DNA from: Escherichia coli
GTDB taxonomy: Bacteria > Pseudomonadota > Gammaproteobacteria > Enterobacterales > Enterobacteriaceae
Length of the DNA stretch: 64,000 nt
Reading direction: 5' to 3' (one strand)
NCBI RefSeq assembly: GCF_041886205.1
Contig: NZ_CP169029.1
Positions 8,713 to 39,894 of this stretch are shown here, one piece after another (within the stretch, counting starts at the first letter, position 1; each line of letters begins with the position of its first letter). Under the pieces are notes generated by a model that saw only the letters and a list, made by a program, of their open reading frames with translations, had not been told where the DNA came from and did not search any database. The position numbers and the translations under genes were made by a program.

Positions 8713-8797
8713 CCAGGCCTGATAAGACGCGTGATGCGTCGTATCAGGCATCGTTCACCATTGCCGGATGCGGCGTTAACGCCTTATCCGGCCTACG
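8713..8797. repeat. BIME: two REP elements between ypfH and ypfN
   Basis: gcctgataagacgcgtgatgcgtcgtatcaggc and gccggatgcggcgttaacgccttatccggcctac, both matching the REP consensus. Confidence 0.8.
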
Positions 8798-25689: not shown

Positions 25690-25717
25690 CGCTTACCCTG
25701 AATATTCAGGGTAAGCG
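25690..25717. other. 28-bp perfect palindrome downstream of maeB (possible terminator hairpin or operator)
   Basis: cgcttaccctgaatattcagggtaagcg is its own reverse complement; T-run lies 5' of it rather than 3'. Confidence 0.5.
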
Positions 25718-28268: not shown

Positions 28269-29281
28269 TTATTGAACGTTGTCGTGAACTGGCGTTGCGA
28301 GCGCCCGCCAGAGTGGTTTTTCCGGATGCGTTAGATCAACGTGTGCTGAAAGCTGCGCAATATTTACATCAACAAGGTCTGGCAACGCCCATTCTGGTCG
28401 CCAATCCGTTTGAACTTCGTCAGTTTGCGCTCAGTCACGGCGTGGCGATGGACGGGCTACAGGTGATTGATCCGCATGGCAACCTCGCAATGCGGGAAGA
28501 ATTTGCTCATCGCTGGCTGGCCCGCGCGGGCGAAAAAACGCCGCCGGATGCGCTGGAAAAACTTACCGATCCGCTGATGTTCGCCGCCGCAATGGTCAGC
28601 GCCGGTAAAGCGGATGTCTGTATCGCGGGCAACCTCTCTTCCACGGCGAATGTGCTGCGTGCCGGATTACGCATTATCGGCTTGCAGCCAGGCTGTAAAA
28701 CGCTCTCTTCCATTTTCCTGATGCTGCCACAGTACAGCGGCCCGGCGTTGGGCTTTGCCGATTGCAGCGTGGTGCCACAGCCGACGGCGGCGCAACTGGC
28801 GGATATCGCGCTTGCCAGTGCCGAAACCTGGCGCGCCATCACCGGAGAAGAGCCGCGCGTGGCGATGTTGTCGTTTTCCAGCAACGGTAGCGCCCGTCAC
28901 CCCTGCGTAGCCAACGTCCAGCAGGCGACAGAAATCGTCCGTGAGCGCGCACCAAAGCTGGTGGTTGATGGCGAGTTACAGTTTGACGCCGCCTTCGTGC
29001 CGGAAGTGGCGGCGCAAAAAGCGCCTGCAAGCCCGCTACAAGGCAAAGCCAATGTGATGGTTTTTCCGTCGCTGGAAGCCGGAAATATTGGCTACAAAAT
29101 CGCACAACGACTTGGCGGATATCGTGCCGTCGGGCCATTGATACAAGGACTTGCCGCGCCGATGCACGATCTCTCTCGTGGTTGTAGCGTGCAGGAAATT
29201 ATCGAGCTGGCGCTGGTGGCAGCAGTGCCGCGTCAGACAGAAGTGAACCGCGAAAGCAGTTTACAAACACTGGTTGAATGA
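28265..29281 (+). CDS. eutD: Phosphotransacetylase EutD (EutI)
   Basis: 338 aa PTA-family protein; ATGA overlap with eutT. Confidence 0.92.
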
Positions 29282-29319
29282 ACGGTCCCGTTCTGGACCC
29301 TGATAAAGAGGAAAGCACA

Positions 29320-29613
29320 ATGGAAGCATTAGGAATGATCGAAACCCGGGGCCTGGTTGCACTGATTGAGGCTTCTGACGCGATGGTTAAAGCTGCGCGC
29401 GTCAAGCTGGTTGGTGTTAAGCAGATTGGCGGCGGCCTGTGTACTGCCATGGTTCGTGGTGATGTTGCAGCCTGTAAAGCCGCGACCGATGCAGGTGCCG
29501 CAGCGGCACAGCGTATCGGCGAGCTGGTATCTGTACACGTTATCCCGCGTCCGCACGGCGACCTGGAAGAAGTCTTCCCGATCGGCCTGAAAGGCGATAG
29601 CAGCAACCTGTAA
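29320..29613 (+). CDS. eutM: Microcompartment shell protein EutM (BMC-H)
   Basis: 97 aa from [26 protein letters not shown] (canonical BMC domain), AGAGGA RBS; ORF track starts 14 codons upstream. Confidence 0.9.
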
Positions 29614-29719
29614 TCACCCTGTGTGACGTCGATTCGGGCGTCACGCTCTCTCCTTTTTCATTTTACCTTCTGCGGAGGGTAGGGGGAGCTTTTACCTGAA
29701 ATACGCCACGGAGGCGGGT

Positions 29720-30007
29720 ATGAAACTGGCAGTCGTCACTGGACAAATTGTTTGTACCGTACGCCATCACGGACTGGCGCATGACAAATTGCTGATGGTG
29801 GAAATGATTGATCCACAAGGTAATCCTGACGGGCAATGTGCCGTCGCCATCGACAATATTGGCGCGGGAACCGGGGAGTGGGTGTTGCTGGTGAGTGGCA
29901 GTTCCGCCCGCCAGGCGCATAAAAGCGAAACGTCACCGGTCGATCTGTGCGTGATTGGCATTGTCGATGAGGTGGTGTCTGGCGGTCAGGTAATTTTCCA
30001 CAAATAA
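29720..30007 (+). CDS. eutN: Microcompartment vertex protein EutN (BMV/CcmL-EutN family)
   Basis: 95 aa MKLAVVTGQIVCTVRHHGL...; recognised EutN. Confidence 0.92.
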   Translation: MKLAVVTGQIVCTVRHHGLAHDKLLMVEMIDPQGNPDGQCAVAIDNIGAGTGEWVLLVSGSSARQAHKSETSPVDLCVIGIVDEVVSGGQVIFHK

Positions 30008-30018
30008 GGCAGAACATC

Positions 30019-31422
30019 ATGAATCAACAGGATATTGAACAGGTGGTGAAAGCGGTACTGCTGAAAATGCAAAGCAGTGACACGCCGCCCGCCACCGTTC
30101 ATGAGATGGGCATTTTCGCGTCCCTGGATGACGCCGTTGCGGCAGCCAAAGTTGCCCAGCAAGGGTTAAAGAGCGTGGCAATGCGCCAGTTAGCCATTGC
30201 TGCCATTCGTGAAGCAGGCGAAAAACACGCCAGAGATTTAGCGGAACTTGCCGTCAGTGAAACCGGCATGGGCCGCGTCGAAGATAAATTTGCCAAAAAC
30301 GTCGCTCAGGCGCGCGGCACGCCAGGCGTTGAGTGTCTCTCTCCGCAGGTGCTGACTGGCGACAACGGCCTGACTTTAATTGAAAACGCGCCCTGGGGCG
30401 TGGTGGCTTCGGTGACGCCTTCCACTAACCCGGCGGCAACCGTAATTAACAACGCCATCAGCCTGATTGCCGCGGGCAACAGCGTCATTTTTGCCCCGCA
30501 TCCGGCGGCGAAAAAAGTCTCCCAGCGGGCGATCACGCTGCTCAACCAGGCGATTGTTGCCGCAGGCGGGCCGGAAAACTTACTGGTTACTGTGGCAAAT
30601 CCGGATATCGAAACCGCGCAACGCTTGTTCAAGTTTCCGGGCATCGGCCTTCTGGTGGTGACCGGCGGCGAAGCGGTAGTAGAAGCGGCGCGTAAACACA
30701 CCAATAAACGTCTGATTGCCGCAGGCGCTGGCAACCCGCCGGTAGTGGTGGATGAAACCGCTGACCTCGCCCGTGCTGCTCAGTCCATCGTCAAAGGCGC
30801 GTCTTTCGATAACAACATCATTTGTGCCGACGAAAAGGTACTGATTGTTGTTGATAGCGTAGCCGATGAACTGATGCGTCTGATGCAAGGCCAGCACGCG
30901 GTGAAACTGACCGCAGAGCAGGCGCAGCAACTGCAACCGGTGTTGCTGAAAAATATCGACGAGCGCGGAAAAGGCACCGTCAGCCGTGACTGGGTAGGTC
31001 GCGATGCGGCGAAAATCGCGGCGGCAATCGGCCTTAAAGTTCCGGAACAAACGCGACTGCTGTTTGTAGAAACCACCGCAGAACATCCGTTTGCCGTGAC
31101 CGAACTGATGATGCCGGTGCTGCCCGTCGTGCGCGTCGCCAACGTGGCGGATGCCATTGCGCTGGCGGTGAAACTGGAAGGCGGTTGCCACCACACGGCG
31201 GCAATGCACTCGCGCAACATCGAAAACATGAACCAGATGGCGAACGCCATTGATACCAGCATTTTCGTTAAGAACGGACCGTGCATTGCCGGGCTGGGTC
31301 TGGGCGGGGAAGGCTGGACCACCATGACCATCACCACGCCAACCGGTGAAGGGGTAACCAGCGCGCGGACGTTTGTCCGTCTGCGTCGCTGTGTATTAGT
31401 CGATGCGTTTCGCATTGTTTAA
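30019..31422 (+). CDS. eutE: Acetaldehyde dehydrogenase (acetylating) EutE
   Basis: 467 aa aldehyde dehydrogenase-family protein; recognised EutE. Confidence 0.92.
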   Translation: MNQQDIEQVVKAVLLKMQSSDTPPATVHEMGIFASLDDAVAAAKVAQQGLKSVAMRQLAIAAIREAGEKHARDLAELAVSETGMGRVEDKFAKNVAQARGTPGVECLSPQVLTGDNGLTLIENAPWGVVASVTPSTNPAATVINNAISLIAAGNSVIFAPHPAAKKVSQRAITLLNQAIVAAGGPENLLVTVANPDIETAQRLFKFPGIGLLVVTGGEAVVEAARKHTNKRLIAAGAGNPPVVVDETADLARAAQSIVKGASFDNNIICADEKVLIVVDSVADELMRLMQGQHAVKLTAEQAQQLQPVLLKNIDERGKGTVSRDWVGRDAAKIAAAIGLKVPEQTRLLFVETTAEHPFAVTELMMPVLPVVRVANVADAIALAVKLEGGCHHTAAMHSRNIENMNQMANAIDTSIFVKNGPCIAGLGLGGEGWTTMTITTPTGEGVTSARTFVRLRRCVLVDAFRIV

Positions 31423-33446: not shown

Positions 33447-33447
33447 A

Positions 33448-33731
<284 letters not shown>

Positions 33732-33762
33732 AATAAATAACAACTAACAGGGAGTAAAGGCG

Positions 33763-34989: not shown

Positions 34990-36389
34990 ACACTCGCCAG
35001 CTATTGAGCGTCGGTATCGATATCGGCACCACCACCACCCAGGTGATTTTCTCCCACCTGGAACTGGTTAACCGTGCGGCGGTGTCGCAGGTGCCGCGCT
35101 ACGAATTCATCAAACGCGAAATTAGCTGGCAAAGCCCGGTGTACTTTACCCCTGTCGATAAACAGGGTGGTTTAAAAGAAGCGGAACTGAAATCGCTGAT
35201 TTTAGAGCAATATCAGGCTGCGGGCATTGCGCCGGAAAGCGTTGATTCTGGTGCCATCATCATCACCGGTGAAAGCGCGAAAACCCGCAATGCTCGCCCG
35301 GCGGTGATGGCGCTCTCTCAATCGCTGGGGGATTTTGTCGTTGCCAGCGCCGGGCCGCACCTCGAATCCGTGATCGCCGGTCACGGAGCCGGGGCACAAA
35401 CCCTTTCTGAACAACGGCTGTGTCGGGTACTGAATATCGACATCGGCGGTGGCACCGCGAACTACGCCCTGTTCGATGCCGGAAAAATCAGCGGCACCGC
35501 CTGCCTCAACGTCGGTGGTCGCCTGCTGGAAACCGACAGCCAGGGGCGCGTGGTTTACGCTCATAAACCGGGGCAGATGATTGTGGATGAGTGCTTCGGT
35601 GCAGGCACTGACGCCCGTTCGCTGACCGGCGCGCAGCTGGTGCAGGTTACCCGGCGGATGGCGGCGCTGATTGTCGAAGTGATTGACGGAACGCTTTCGC
35701 CGCTCGCGCAGGCATTGATGCAAACCGGTTTGCTGCCCGCAGGTGTTACGCCCGAAATCATTACGCTTTCTGGCGGCGTGGGCGAATGTTATCGCCACCA
35801 GCCCGCCGACCCGTTCTGTTTTGCCGATATTGGCCCACTTCTGGCAACGGCGCTGCATGACCATCCGCGCCTGCGTGAGATGAATGTGCAGTTTCCAGCG
35901 CAAACCGTACGCGCCACGGTGATTGGCGCGGGTGCACATACCCTTTCGCTCTCTGGCAGCACAATCTGGCTGGAGGGCGTACAACTGCCGCTGCGCAATT
36001 TGCCGGTGGCGATCCCAATTGATGAAACGGATCTGGTGTGTGCCTGGCAACAGGCGCTGATTCAGCTGGATCTTGATCCTAAAACTGACGCGTACGTGCT
36101 GGCGCTTCCCGCCTCGCTGCCTGTGCGTTACGCCGCGGTACTGACGGTCATCAACGCGCTGGTCGATTTCGTCGCGCGTTTTCCGAATCCGCATCCCCTG
36201 CTGGTGGTGGCCGGGCAGGACTTTGGTAAAGCTCTGGGCATGTTGTTGCGCCCACAGCTACAACAACTCCCGTTGGCAGTCATTGACGAAGTGATTGTCC
36301 GCGCGGGGGACTATATCGACATTGGTACGCCTCTTTTTGGCGGATCGGTTGTGCCGGTGACGGTGAAATCACTCGCATTTCCTTCCTGA
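34986..36389 (+). CDS. eutA: Ethanolamine ammonia-lyase reactivase EutA
   Basis: 467 aa; GTG start overlapping eutH stop (GTGA); recognised EutA. Confidence 0.9.
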   Translation: MNTRQLLSVGIDIGTTTTQVIFSHLELVNRAAVSQVPRYEFIKREISWQSPVYFTPVDKQGGLKEAELKSLILEQYQAAGIAPESVDSGAIIITGESAKTRNARPAVMALSQSLGDFVVASAGPHLESVIAGHGAGAQTLSEQRLCRVLNIDIGGGTANYALFDAGKISGTACLNVGGRLLETDSQGRVVYAHKPGQMIVDECFGAGTDARSLTGAQLVQVTRRMAALIVEVIDGTLSPLAQALMQTGLLPAGVTPEIITLSGGVGECYRHQPADPFCFADIGPLLATALHDHPRLREMNVQFPAQTVRATVIGAGAHTLSLSGSTIWLEGVQLPLRNLPVAIPIDETDLVCAWQQALIQLDLDPKTDAYVLALPASLPVRYAAVLTVINALVDFVARFPNPHPLLVVAGQDFGKALGMLLRPQLQQLPLAVIDEVIVRAGDYIDIGTPLFGGSVVPVTVKSLAFPS

Positions 36390-36400
36390 GGGAACGACTT

Positions 36401-37762
36401 ATGAAACTAAAGACCACATTGTTCGGCAATGTATATCAGTTTAAGGATGTAAAAGAGGTGCTGGCTAAAGCCAACGAACTGCGTTCGGGGGATGTGCTGG
36501 CGGGCGTTGCAGCGGCAAGCTCACAGGAGCGCGTGGCGGCAAAGCAGGTGTTGTCGGAAATGACCGTAGCGGACATCCGCAATAATCCGGTAATTGCCTA
36601 TGAAGATGACTGCGTGACGCGGCTGATTCAGGACGATGTTAACGAAACGGCCTACAACCAGATTAAAAACTGGAGCATCAGCGAACTGCGTGAGTATGTG
36701 CTGAGCGATGAAACCAGCGTGGACGACATTGCCTTTACCCGCAAAGGGCTGACCTCGGAAGTGGTCGCGGCGGTAGCGAAGATTTGCTCCAACGCGGACC
36801 TGATCTACGGCGCGAAGAAAATGCCGGTAATCAAAAAGGCCAATACCACCATCGGTATTCCGGGCACCTTTAGCGCCCGTTTGCAGCCAAATGACACCCG
36901 TGACGACGTGCAAAGTATCGCCGCGCAAATCTACGAAGGGCTTTCCTTCGGGGTGGGTGATGCGGTGATCGGCGTTAACCCGGTGACAGACGACGTGGAA
37001 AACTTAAGCCGCGTGTTGGACACCATTTATGGCGTGATCGACAAATTCAACATCCCAACTCAGGGCTGCGTACTGGCGCACGTCACCACCCAGATCGAAG
37101 CGATTCGTCGCGGCGCACCAGGCGGGCTGATTTTCCAGAGTATCTGTGGCAGCGAAAAAGGGCTGAAAGAGTTTGGCGTGGAACTGGCGATGCTCGATGA
37201 AGCACGCGCAGTGGGCGCGGAGTTCAACCGTATCGCCGGGGAAAACTGCCTCTACTTCGAAACCGGGCAGGGTTCTGCGCTATCCGCTGGCGCTAACTTC
37301 GGCGCAGACCAGGTGACGATGGAAGCACGTAACTATGGGCTGGCGCGTCATTACGATCCGTTTATCGTCAACACCGTGGTCGGCTTTATTGGGCCGGAGT
37401 ATCTCTACAACGATCGCCAGATTATCCGTGCGGGCTTAGAAGATCACTTTATGGGCAAGCTGAGCGGCATCTCTATGGGCTGTGACTGCTGCTACACCAA
37501 CCACGCTGACGCTGACCAGAACCTCAACGAAAACCTGATGATCCTGCTCGCCACCGCAGGCTGCAACTACATCATGGGGATGCCGCTGGGCGATGACATC
37601 ATGCTCAACTATCAGACCACCGCATTCCACGACACTGCCACTGTGCGTCAGTTACTCAACCTGCGCCCGTCACCGGAGTTTGAACGCTGGCTGGAAAGCA
37701 TGGGCATTATGGCAAACGGTCGCCTGACCAAACGGGCGGGCGATCCGTCACTGTTCTTCTGA
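36401..37762 (+). CDS. eutB: Ethanolamine ammonia-lyase large subunit EutB
   Basis: 453 aa; recognised EutB; begins 11 bp after eutA stop. Confidence 0.93.
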   Translation: MKLKTTLFGNVYQFKDVKEVLAKANELRSGDVLAGVAAASSQERVAAKQVLSEMTVADIRNNPVIAYEDDCVTRLIQDDVNETAYNQIKNWSISELREYVLSDETSVDDIAFTRKGLTSEVVAAVAKICSNADLIYGAKKMPVIKKANTTIGIPGTFSARLQPNDTRDDVQSIAAQIYEGLSFGVGDAVIGVNPVTDDVENLSRVLDTIYGVIDKFNIPTQGCVLAHVTTQIEAIRRGAPGGLIFQSICGSEKGLKEFGVELAMLDEARAVGAEFNRIAGENCLYFETGQGSALSAGANFGADQVTMEARNYGLARHYDPFIVNTVVGFIGPEYLYNDRQIIRAGLEDHFMGKLSGISMGCDCCYTNHADADQNLNENLMILLATAGCNYIMGMPLGDDIMLNYQTTAFHDTATVRQLLNLRPSPEFERWLESMGIMANGRLTKRAGDPSLFF

Positions 37763-39849: not shown

Positions 39850-39894
39850 CCTGTCGGAGGTGCCGGGTGTCCTACAACACCCGGCATTAACATC

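Follow-up and report, generated by a model that had tools for sequence, protein, structure and literature searches.

The 106-nt spacer between eutM and eutN in the eut operon of Escherichia coli carries a conserved RNA structure. It was predicted to fold into a hairpin just after eutM (HP1), a two-tier hairpin (HP2), a single-stranded linker and a small hairpin over the eutN Shine–Dalgarno sequence (HP3). By analogy with REP elements, we tentatively favour the explanation that this intercistronic module is REP-like, with a unique sequence, and that it may hold back mRNA decay and insulate translation while terminating transcription weakly at most.

The operon was encoded on the + strand of the 64,000-nt stretch of DNA analysed (NZ_CP169029.1; hereafter the window), with the gene order eutD, eutM, eutN, eutE in the RefSeq annotation. 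The 721 nt around the site were 100% identical to strain MB53 and were found in 5406 of 5426 complete E. coli genomes. The spacer of K-12 MG1655 was identical over its 106 nt and contained no annotated feature, and full-text searches returned no description of it. At the eutA–eutB junction (36389-36401) the open reading frames were adjacent, leaving the operon uninterrupted in the window; in K-12 this junction carries the CPZ-55 prophage. The features of the spacer and its flanks, with the evidence for each in brackets, are:

29320..29613, + strand: eutM coding sequence, major hexameric shell protein (open reading frame list and RefSeq annotation of identical sequence)
29611-29613, + strand: eutM stop codon TAA (open reading frame list)
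29614-29719, + strand: eutM–eutN spacer (106 nt between eutM and eutN)
29621..29646, + strand: HP1 hairpin (fold energy, covariation across genera, strand comparison)
29647..29664, + strand: T-rich tract UCUCUCCUUUUUCAUUUU (folds, consensus structure, comparison with terminator tails)
29645..29689, + strand: HP2 two-tier hairpin (fold energy, compensatory changes, strand comparison)
29690..29701, + strand: invariant single-stranded linker UUUUACCUGAAA (invariant columns in 16 sequences)
29704..29716, + strand: HP3, small hairpin over the eutN Shine–Dalgarno sequence (consensus fold, opening energy)
29720..30007, + strand: eutN coding sequence, pentameric vertex protein of low copy number (open reading frame list and annotation)
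30019-31422, + strand: eutE coding sequence (RefSeq annotation)

Predicted structure of the eutM–eutN spacer

HP1 started 7 nt past the eutM stop codon and had a 10-bp stem (29621-29630 with 29637-29646; 6 G-C, 2 A-U and 2 G·U pairs), formed by the arms GUGUGACGUC and GGCGUCACGC around the hexaloop GAUUCG. The stem-loop described in the original prediction was present after the stop codon (GTGACG at 29623-29628, 10 nt, CGTCAC at 29639-29644), and the folding energy calculation that had been named as a check returned a stable hairpin of −17.4 kcal/mol, with a longer stem than had been described. Its z-score against dinucleotide shuffles was −5.2, and 0 of 200 shuffles folded as well. The pattern GTGACG-N(4-30)-CGTCAC occurred once in the 64-kb window, compared with 0.13 expected occurrences. 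Stability alone proves little, since hairpins as stable as HP1 were not rare: by our count, 26 segments of 30 nt on the + strand folded at −17 kcal/mol or lower, approximately one per 2.5 kb. On comparative sequence grounds, it is conservation and covariation, not stability, that set HP1 apart from chance.

HP2 (−19.9 kcal/mol) consisted of an outer stem (29645-29652 with 29682-29689; GCUCUCUC with GGGGGAGC) and an inner stem (29664-29670 with 29675-29681; UACCUUC with GAGGGUA), separated by the internal loop CUUUUUCAUUU and closed by the loop UGCG. The T-rich tract that had been noted after the HP1 stem exists (GCTCTCTCCTTTTTCATTTT, 29645-29664), but no U-run abuts the stem, the adjoining letters being UCUCUCCU, and the tract pairs into HP2. 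This G-free pyrimidine run, UCUCUCCUUUUUCAUUUU, supplies HP2 with its 5′ arm and 11-nt internal loop, and the CU-rich arm is paired with a G-rich, Shine–Dalgarno-like stretch (GGAGGGUAGGGGGAG). The linker UUUUACCUGAAA lies directly 3′ of HP2, and UUUUACCUGAAAUA is single-stranded between HP2 and HP3. The linker may serve as a site for RNase E or as a weak U-tail to HP2. HP3 (CGCC-ACGGA-GGCG) holds part of the eutN Shine–Dalgarno sequence GGAGG (29710-29714), and its outer helix was not conserved. The whole spacer folded at −43.0 kcal/mol (z = −3.2) into these three elements.

Neither strand of the spacer contained a sigma-70-like promoter, and the best minus-strand candidate nearby scored 8/12. 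A 19-codon GTG frame seen by eye at 29623-29682 had no Shine–Dalgarno sequence, and it was rejected as a small open reading frame because homologous spacers (105, 106, 110, 114, 120 and 121 nt) differ in length by non-multiples of three.

Conservation, covariation and replacement by REPs

A scan for EutN with one genome per species gave 48 loci, from which 42 eutM–eutN spacers were extracted and placed in four groups. All 42 proteobacterial spacers (52–211 nt) held a single hairpin of −14.6 kcal/mol or lower, and few had U-rich tails. The E. coli type (HP1, HP2 and UUUUACCUGAAA) was found in Escherichia, the Citrobacter freundii group, two other Citrobacter lineages and Klebsiella spallanzanii. 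Buttiauxella and Entomohabitans carried an HP1-like GUGACGUC hairpin followed by a different second hairpin, and Entomohabitans and most Buttiauxella had ACCUGAA 8–9 nt before the Shine–Dalgarno sequence (AUCUGAA in one Buttiauxella). The 52-nt spacer of Yokenella had an HP1-like hairpin only. Fourteen spacers, from Salmonella, the K. oxytoca group, K. pneumoniae, C. koseri, C. amalonaticus, C. sedlakii, Pseudocitrobacter and Pluralibacter, were of a REP type, with one or two REP copies in either orientation; two of these reached E ~1e-4 against Rfam naRNA4. Spacers of the other type (Intestinirhabdus, Pseudomonas, Pseudothauera and a Rhodocyclaceae genome) contained unrelated G+C-rich hairpins. 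The first hairpin began within 15 nt of the stop codon in 6 of approximately 7 independent structural solutions (our count). Since unrelated hairpins (the unique module, REPs and other G+C-rich stems) all lie just after eutM in different lineages, a selected need for structure at this position is indicated.

K. spallanzanii combined its E. coli-type spacer with an E. coli-type EutM C-terminus (GDSSNL), and the three species sampled from the K. oxytoca group (K. michiganensis, K. oxytoca and K. grimontii) had REPs and GDSNI. The sequences suggest that the K. spallanzanii segment was acquired by recombination or horizontal transfer.

The consensus structure obtained with RNAalifold from 16 distinct E. 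coli-type spacers recovered HP1, HP2 and HP3. Three of its pairs showed compensatory changes, and 98.8% of cells were paired, compared with 50–67% in slid controls. The HP1 core GUGACGYC/GRCGUCAC was kept in six genera; over these genera, four HP1 pairs were changed on both sides and 89% of cells were paired (22–56% in slid controls). At alignment columns 19/44, Buttiauxella had U-A, Escherichia U·G and the C. freundii group C-G, the series expected of classic compensatory change by way of a G·U intermediate. One G-C to A-U change was present in HP1 of Yokenella. HP2 contained three invariant U·G pairs. Because of their G·U pairs, HP1 and HP2 were specific to the sense strand and approximately 8–10 kcal/mol weaker on the opposite strand (HP1: sense −16.2, antisense −8.0 kcal/mol; HP2: sense −18.7, antisense −8.7 kcal/mol). 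An antisense function was rejected on the basis of this weakening on the minus strand, where no T-tract followed the hairpins.

The spacer also appears to be under purifying selection, as judged by its greater conservation than that of 4-fold degenerate sites. Identity between E. coli and Citrobacter or K. spallanzanii was 78–82% in the spacer and 53–62% at 4-fold sites of eutM, eutN and eutE, and between E. coli and E. whittamii it was 98% and 85%, respectively. Unrelated REP-type spacers gave 57–59% identity with the same aligner, which is the noise level. The element was found at a median of one place per genome in 5407 E. coli genomes with a match (sensitive blastn, E ≤ 1). At gathering thresholds, the only Rfam matches in the whole window were to naRNA4, all outside the spacer, and a permissive search (E ≤ 10, 28500-31000) gave no match except a chance RT-15 hit inside eutE. 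One naRNA4 match (85.7 bits) was to a REP pair on the minus strand at 8716-8793. Taken together, the compensatory pairs, strand specificity, conservation, single copy and lack of an Rfam match of the spacer show that the eut mRNA contains a genuine, conserved RNA structure.

Among known classes, the spacer most resembled REP/BIME elements such as those of malE-malF and REP325 in yjdM-yjdN. Like these, it forms stable extragenic hairpins without a proper U-tract in the 3′ UTR of the higher-expressed upstream cistron, with imperfect palindromes that fold stably in the sense RNA between eutM and eutN. True REPs occupy exactly this position in Salmonella, Klebsiella and several Citrobacter, and the same E. 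coli operon carries a REP array between eutG and eutH. However, the spacer sequence was unique and single-copy, with no REP consensus or naRNA4 match, and REPs have no counterpart to the HP2 pyrimidine tract paired with a Shine–Dalgarno-like purine tract. Membership of the REP family was rejected: unlike the eutG–eutH array and the 14 REP-type spacers, this single-copy spacer lacked CCGGATAAG/CTTATCCGG and CCGGATG/CATCCGG. The array itself was a 316-nt BIME with three REP pairs (33447-33762; naRNA4 matches at 33501-33582 and 33601-33682). The corresponding K-12 spacer was only 216 nt long, with two REP pairs, and in strain LF82 the transcript level rose past the array (eutG 168, eutH 514 RPKM).

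Enterobacterial eut is under EutR regulation. In Firmicute eut operons, the ANTAR (EutV) sites and the AdoCbl riboswitch/EutX are comparable to the spacer as tandem small intergenic hairpins that control downstream eut genes. Unlike these, the spacer has the loops GAUUCG (HP1) and UGCG (HP2), and it had no Rfam riboswitch match. ANTAR sites overlap a terminator and consist of 3-bp stems with hexaloops whose first and fourth positions are A and G, respectively (PMC3369931). An ANTAR dual-hairpin site was ruled out by the loop sequences and by the HP1 loop length, which ranged from 4 to >20 nt among taxa.

Termination and transcript levels across the junction

An intrinsic terminator of the canonical kind combines a G/C-rich hairpin (stem ≥4 bp, loop 3–13 nt) with a U-tract of 8–10 nt that begins right at the end of the stem (PMC12207403). 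HP1 had such a hairpin (10 bp with 6 G-C pairs, a 6-nt loop, −17.4 kcal/mol) and, like a terminator, this G+C-rich short-loop hairpin was followed by a pyrimidine-rich stretch with U-runs. The U-tract was lacking, however. UCUCUCC parts the HP1 stem from the U-run, the HP1 tail (UCUCUCCUUU) had 3 U in its first 6 nt, and HP2 was followed by UUUU only (tail UUUUACCUG; UUUUAC, 4 U in the first 6 nt). In contrast, the seven canonical terminators in the same window carried 5–6 U in the first 6 nt, right at the stem. HP1 is probably not an efficient terminator and would cause weak termination at most. Elsewhere in the window, a perfect 14-bp palindrome (25690-25717, −22 kcal/mol) lay just past a 759-aa open reading frame, which we take to be maeB, and an A+T-rich region came next, ahead of eutS. 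The palindrome is probably where maeB transcription terminates, and the region beyond it probably contains the eut promoter.

Published RNA-seq of strain LF82, a single study in which these short genes were quantified, gave RPKM values under bile salts, where eut is induced, of 357 for eutD, 177 for eutM, 62 for eutN, 149 for eutE, 147 for eutJ and 168 for eutG, and in minimal medium, where it is not, of 108, 55, 5, 14, 13 and 35, respectively (PMC6379400). Read-through on induction was thus ~0.84 (eutE/eutM mRNA ratio), a step of ~1.2-fold, whereas without induction mRNA dropped 4- to 11-fold over the eutM junction (55 versus 14 RPKM for eutM and eutE). The mRNA of eutN was below that of both its neighbours. 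In EHEC, fold induction was uniform over the junction (eutM 4.37, eutN 4.3, eutE 4.14). Proteomics of K-12 W3110, whose spacer is identical to that of the window, gave, relative to EutQ = 100, EutM 96, EutN 1, EutE 27, EutD 10, EutB 37 and EutL 39 (PMC11334477). Because the induced eutE/eutM ratio was ~0.84 and the downstream proteins EutE, EutB and EutL were abundant, transcription showed no strong polarity downstream of eutM. Any effect on full-length mRNA, whether stabilising or attenuating, would be small, since the induced step from eutM to eutE was only ~1.2-fold.

These data weigh against the claim that HP1 and the T-rich tract form a partial Rho-independent terminator halting a sizeable fraction of polymerases after eutM, which we consider unlikely. 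A consensus scan did flag 29621-29646 as terminator-like (10 pairs, 6 G-C, 6-nt loop), HP1 homologues in Buttiauxella had more U-rich tails, e.g. CUUCUUUU (5–6 U in the first 8 nt), and the fall in uninduced LF82 mRNA would fit such a terminator. The scan was unspecific, however, returning 10 sites in 6 kb compared with 7.4 ± 3.3 in shuffles, and Yokenella retained HP1 without any U-tract. The RNA:DNA hybrid of the E. coli tail was estimated from nearest-neighbour values at approximately −9.5 kcal/mol, compared with −1.6 kcal/mol for U9. The poor tail, the uniform EHEC induction, the induced eutE and eutJ mRNA at ~0.84 of eutM and the abundant downstream proteins all count against it.

The suggestion that the hairpin stabilises mRNA fared better, in that a conserved sense-strand hairpin does follow the shell gene and REPs take its place in sister genera; by that analogy, the effect is plausible. 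REPs are documented as stabilisers of upstream mRNA and as partial Rho-dependent terminators (bioRxiv 10.64898/2026.03.23.713779; PMC12306157), which makes a stabilising or weakly attenuating role of the E. coli spacer plausible, since REPs occupy the same position in sister genera.

No sense-strand 3′ end in the spacer was listed in the Term-seq and Rho tables of Adams 2021 or in the TERMITe supplements, both from cultures without added ethanolamine and B12. RepRanger gave nothing for the sense strand of the spacer, and the EPEC RIL-seq supplements had no eutM/eutN entry as an Hfq-bound or chimeric RNA under conditions in which eut was probably unexpressed. A low-count antisense 3′ end was recorded in supplementary file 1 of Adams 2021 (MG1655 2572217(+)), corresponding to ~29553 inside the 3′ end of eutM. 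The 61-mer around this end aligned with the minus strand at 29543-29603. A transcript ending there would run antisense through the spacer; nearby, a search for a sigma-70 promoter gave no good candidate.

Translation of eutN and shell stoichiometry

In K-12, EutN protein amounted to ~1% of EutM, and the EutM:EutN ratio was ~96:1 for protein, compared with 2.9:1 for mRNA in LF82. Since a protein ratio of ~100:1 far exceeds an mRNA ratio of ~3:1, the stoichiometry of EutM and EutN is set mainly by translation. The hairpin of the original prediction probably does tune relative expression. The predicted opening energy of the start region was 12.8 kcal/mol for eutN, 7.6 kcal/mol for eutM and 5.4 kcal/mol for eutE, the costlier opening of eutN accounting for some of the difference in translation. 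Within the operon, the eutR start region was the costliest to open (19.8 kcal/mol). There, a perfect 10-bp hairpin in the eutK–eutR spacer (UGCCGGGUGU-N6-ACACCCGGCA; 39861-39886; −20.7 kcal/mol) stops 8 nt short of the eutR start codon (39895), with no obvious Shine–Dalgarno sequence. The model suggests that translation of the EutR regulator is kept low.

As an intercistronic buffer, the spacer would be transcribed within the eut mRNA and would fold into HP1, HP2, the single-stranded UUUUACCUGAAA and the hairpin over the eutN ribosome-binding site. The two stable hairpins past the eutM stop would block 3′-to-5′ exonucleases, with cleavage presumably occurring in the AU-rich linker, and might perhaps halt a small fraction of polymerases. 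By either route, the eutS-to-eutM message would become somewhat enriched over the downstream part. The 106-nt structured gap and the structured eutN start would uncouple eutN from the heavy ribosome traffic on eutM and so insulate its translation, keeping the vertex protein ~100-fold below the facet protein. Against this model, a simple barrier does not predict the dip of eutN mRNA below both neighbours. Also, REPs within 15 nt of a stop codon reportedly disturb terminating ribosomes and depress the translation of the gene upstream instead of increasing it (PMC12306157).

A purely translational role, to which we give a limited share of the probability, would have the spacer prevent termination–reinitiation coupling while the structured start, possibly with a GGA-binding protein such as CsrA at the ACGGA loop of HP3, keeps EutN low and mRNA ends and stability stay unaffected. 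The disparity between protein and mRNA ratios, the additional ~5–7 kcal/mol needed to open the eutN start relative to eutM or eutE and the proximity of the first hairpin to the stop codon in most structural solutions all favour this role, REPs so near a stop codon being reported to disturb terminating ribosomes (PMC12306157); low eutN mRNA would fit poor ribosome protection. It leaves unexplained why two strong hairpins, and not just any spacer, are conserved and why uninduced mRNA falls 4- to 11-fold; furthermore, the outer helix of HP3 is unconserved and the case for CsrA is one of motif resemblance only. The HP1 stem sequence is conserved beyond the needs of pairing and the unpaired 12-nt linker is invariant, which hints at a sequence-specific partner; together with the unexplained eutN mRNA dip, this conservation leaves room for one. 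HP1, HP2 and UUUUACCUGAAA might then be a eut-specific cis-regulatory RNA with a partner (RNase E, Hfq, ProQ, CsrA or an sRNA), or the eutM 3′ UTR might release an sRNA with a CU-rich anti-Shine–Dalgarno seed, a doubtful reading under which the ~100:1 facet:vertex ratio would be set actively instead of by a passive hairpin.

We regard it as quite improbable that HP2 and UUUU (29690-29693) form a 3′ end by weak termination or processing, which would yield an eutS-to-eutM transcript or a ~75-nt RNA of HP1 and HP2 whose CU-rich, anti-Shine–Dalgarno-like stretch could pair with ribosome-binding sites. The UUUU directly adjoins the G-C base of HP2 and did not vary among 16 sequences, and the HP2 tail (4/6 U) is better than that of HP1. 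Two hairpins ending in a U-run are a familiar layout of 3′ UTR-derived sRNAs, which the module resembles. However, only four U are present before ACC, HP2 is interrupted by an 11-nt internal loop, the predicted ensemble has the CU tract base-paired inside HP2, no Rfam match was obtained, and the supplements searched listed no Hfq-bound or chimeric eutM/eutN RNA, eut being probably unexpressed there. Very unlikely, finally, is the absence of a selected function, in which a tolerated gap gathers palindromic DNA (REP insertions and relic hairpins), or a protein-binding inverted repeat at the DNA level, TGACGTCA-like. REPs of varied orientation and number did land in the gap in several lineages, hairpins as stable as HP1 are frequent in the window, and the HP1 arms contain the palindrome GACGTC. 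Conservation above 4-fold degenerate sites and the single copy in E. coli speak against a functionless gap, and the spacer has no promoter-like site. A DNA-binding inverted repeat or CRP-like site was rejected because the HP1 arms are 4 to >20 nt apart depending on the taxon, a variability that does not suit a dimeric DNA-binding site, and because changes by way of G·U, like the invariant U·G pairs, are meaningful only in RNA.

Microcompartment shells need very unequal amounts of facet (EutM) and vertex (EutN) protein from one operon. The spacer is a familiar, operon-tuning kind of element, and its measured effect on mRNA is small. We found no description of an RNA-level means of unequal EutM and EutN output in enterobacteria, for which the spacer is a concrete conserved candidate. 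Engineered Eut compartments usually omit the native spacers, and this omission may disturb shell stoichiometry.
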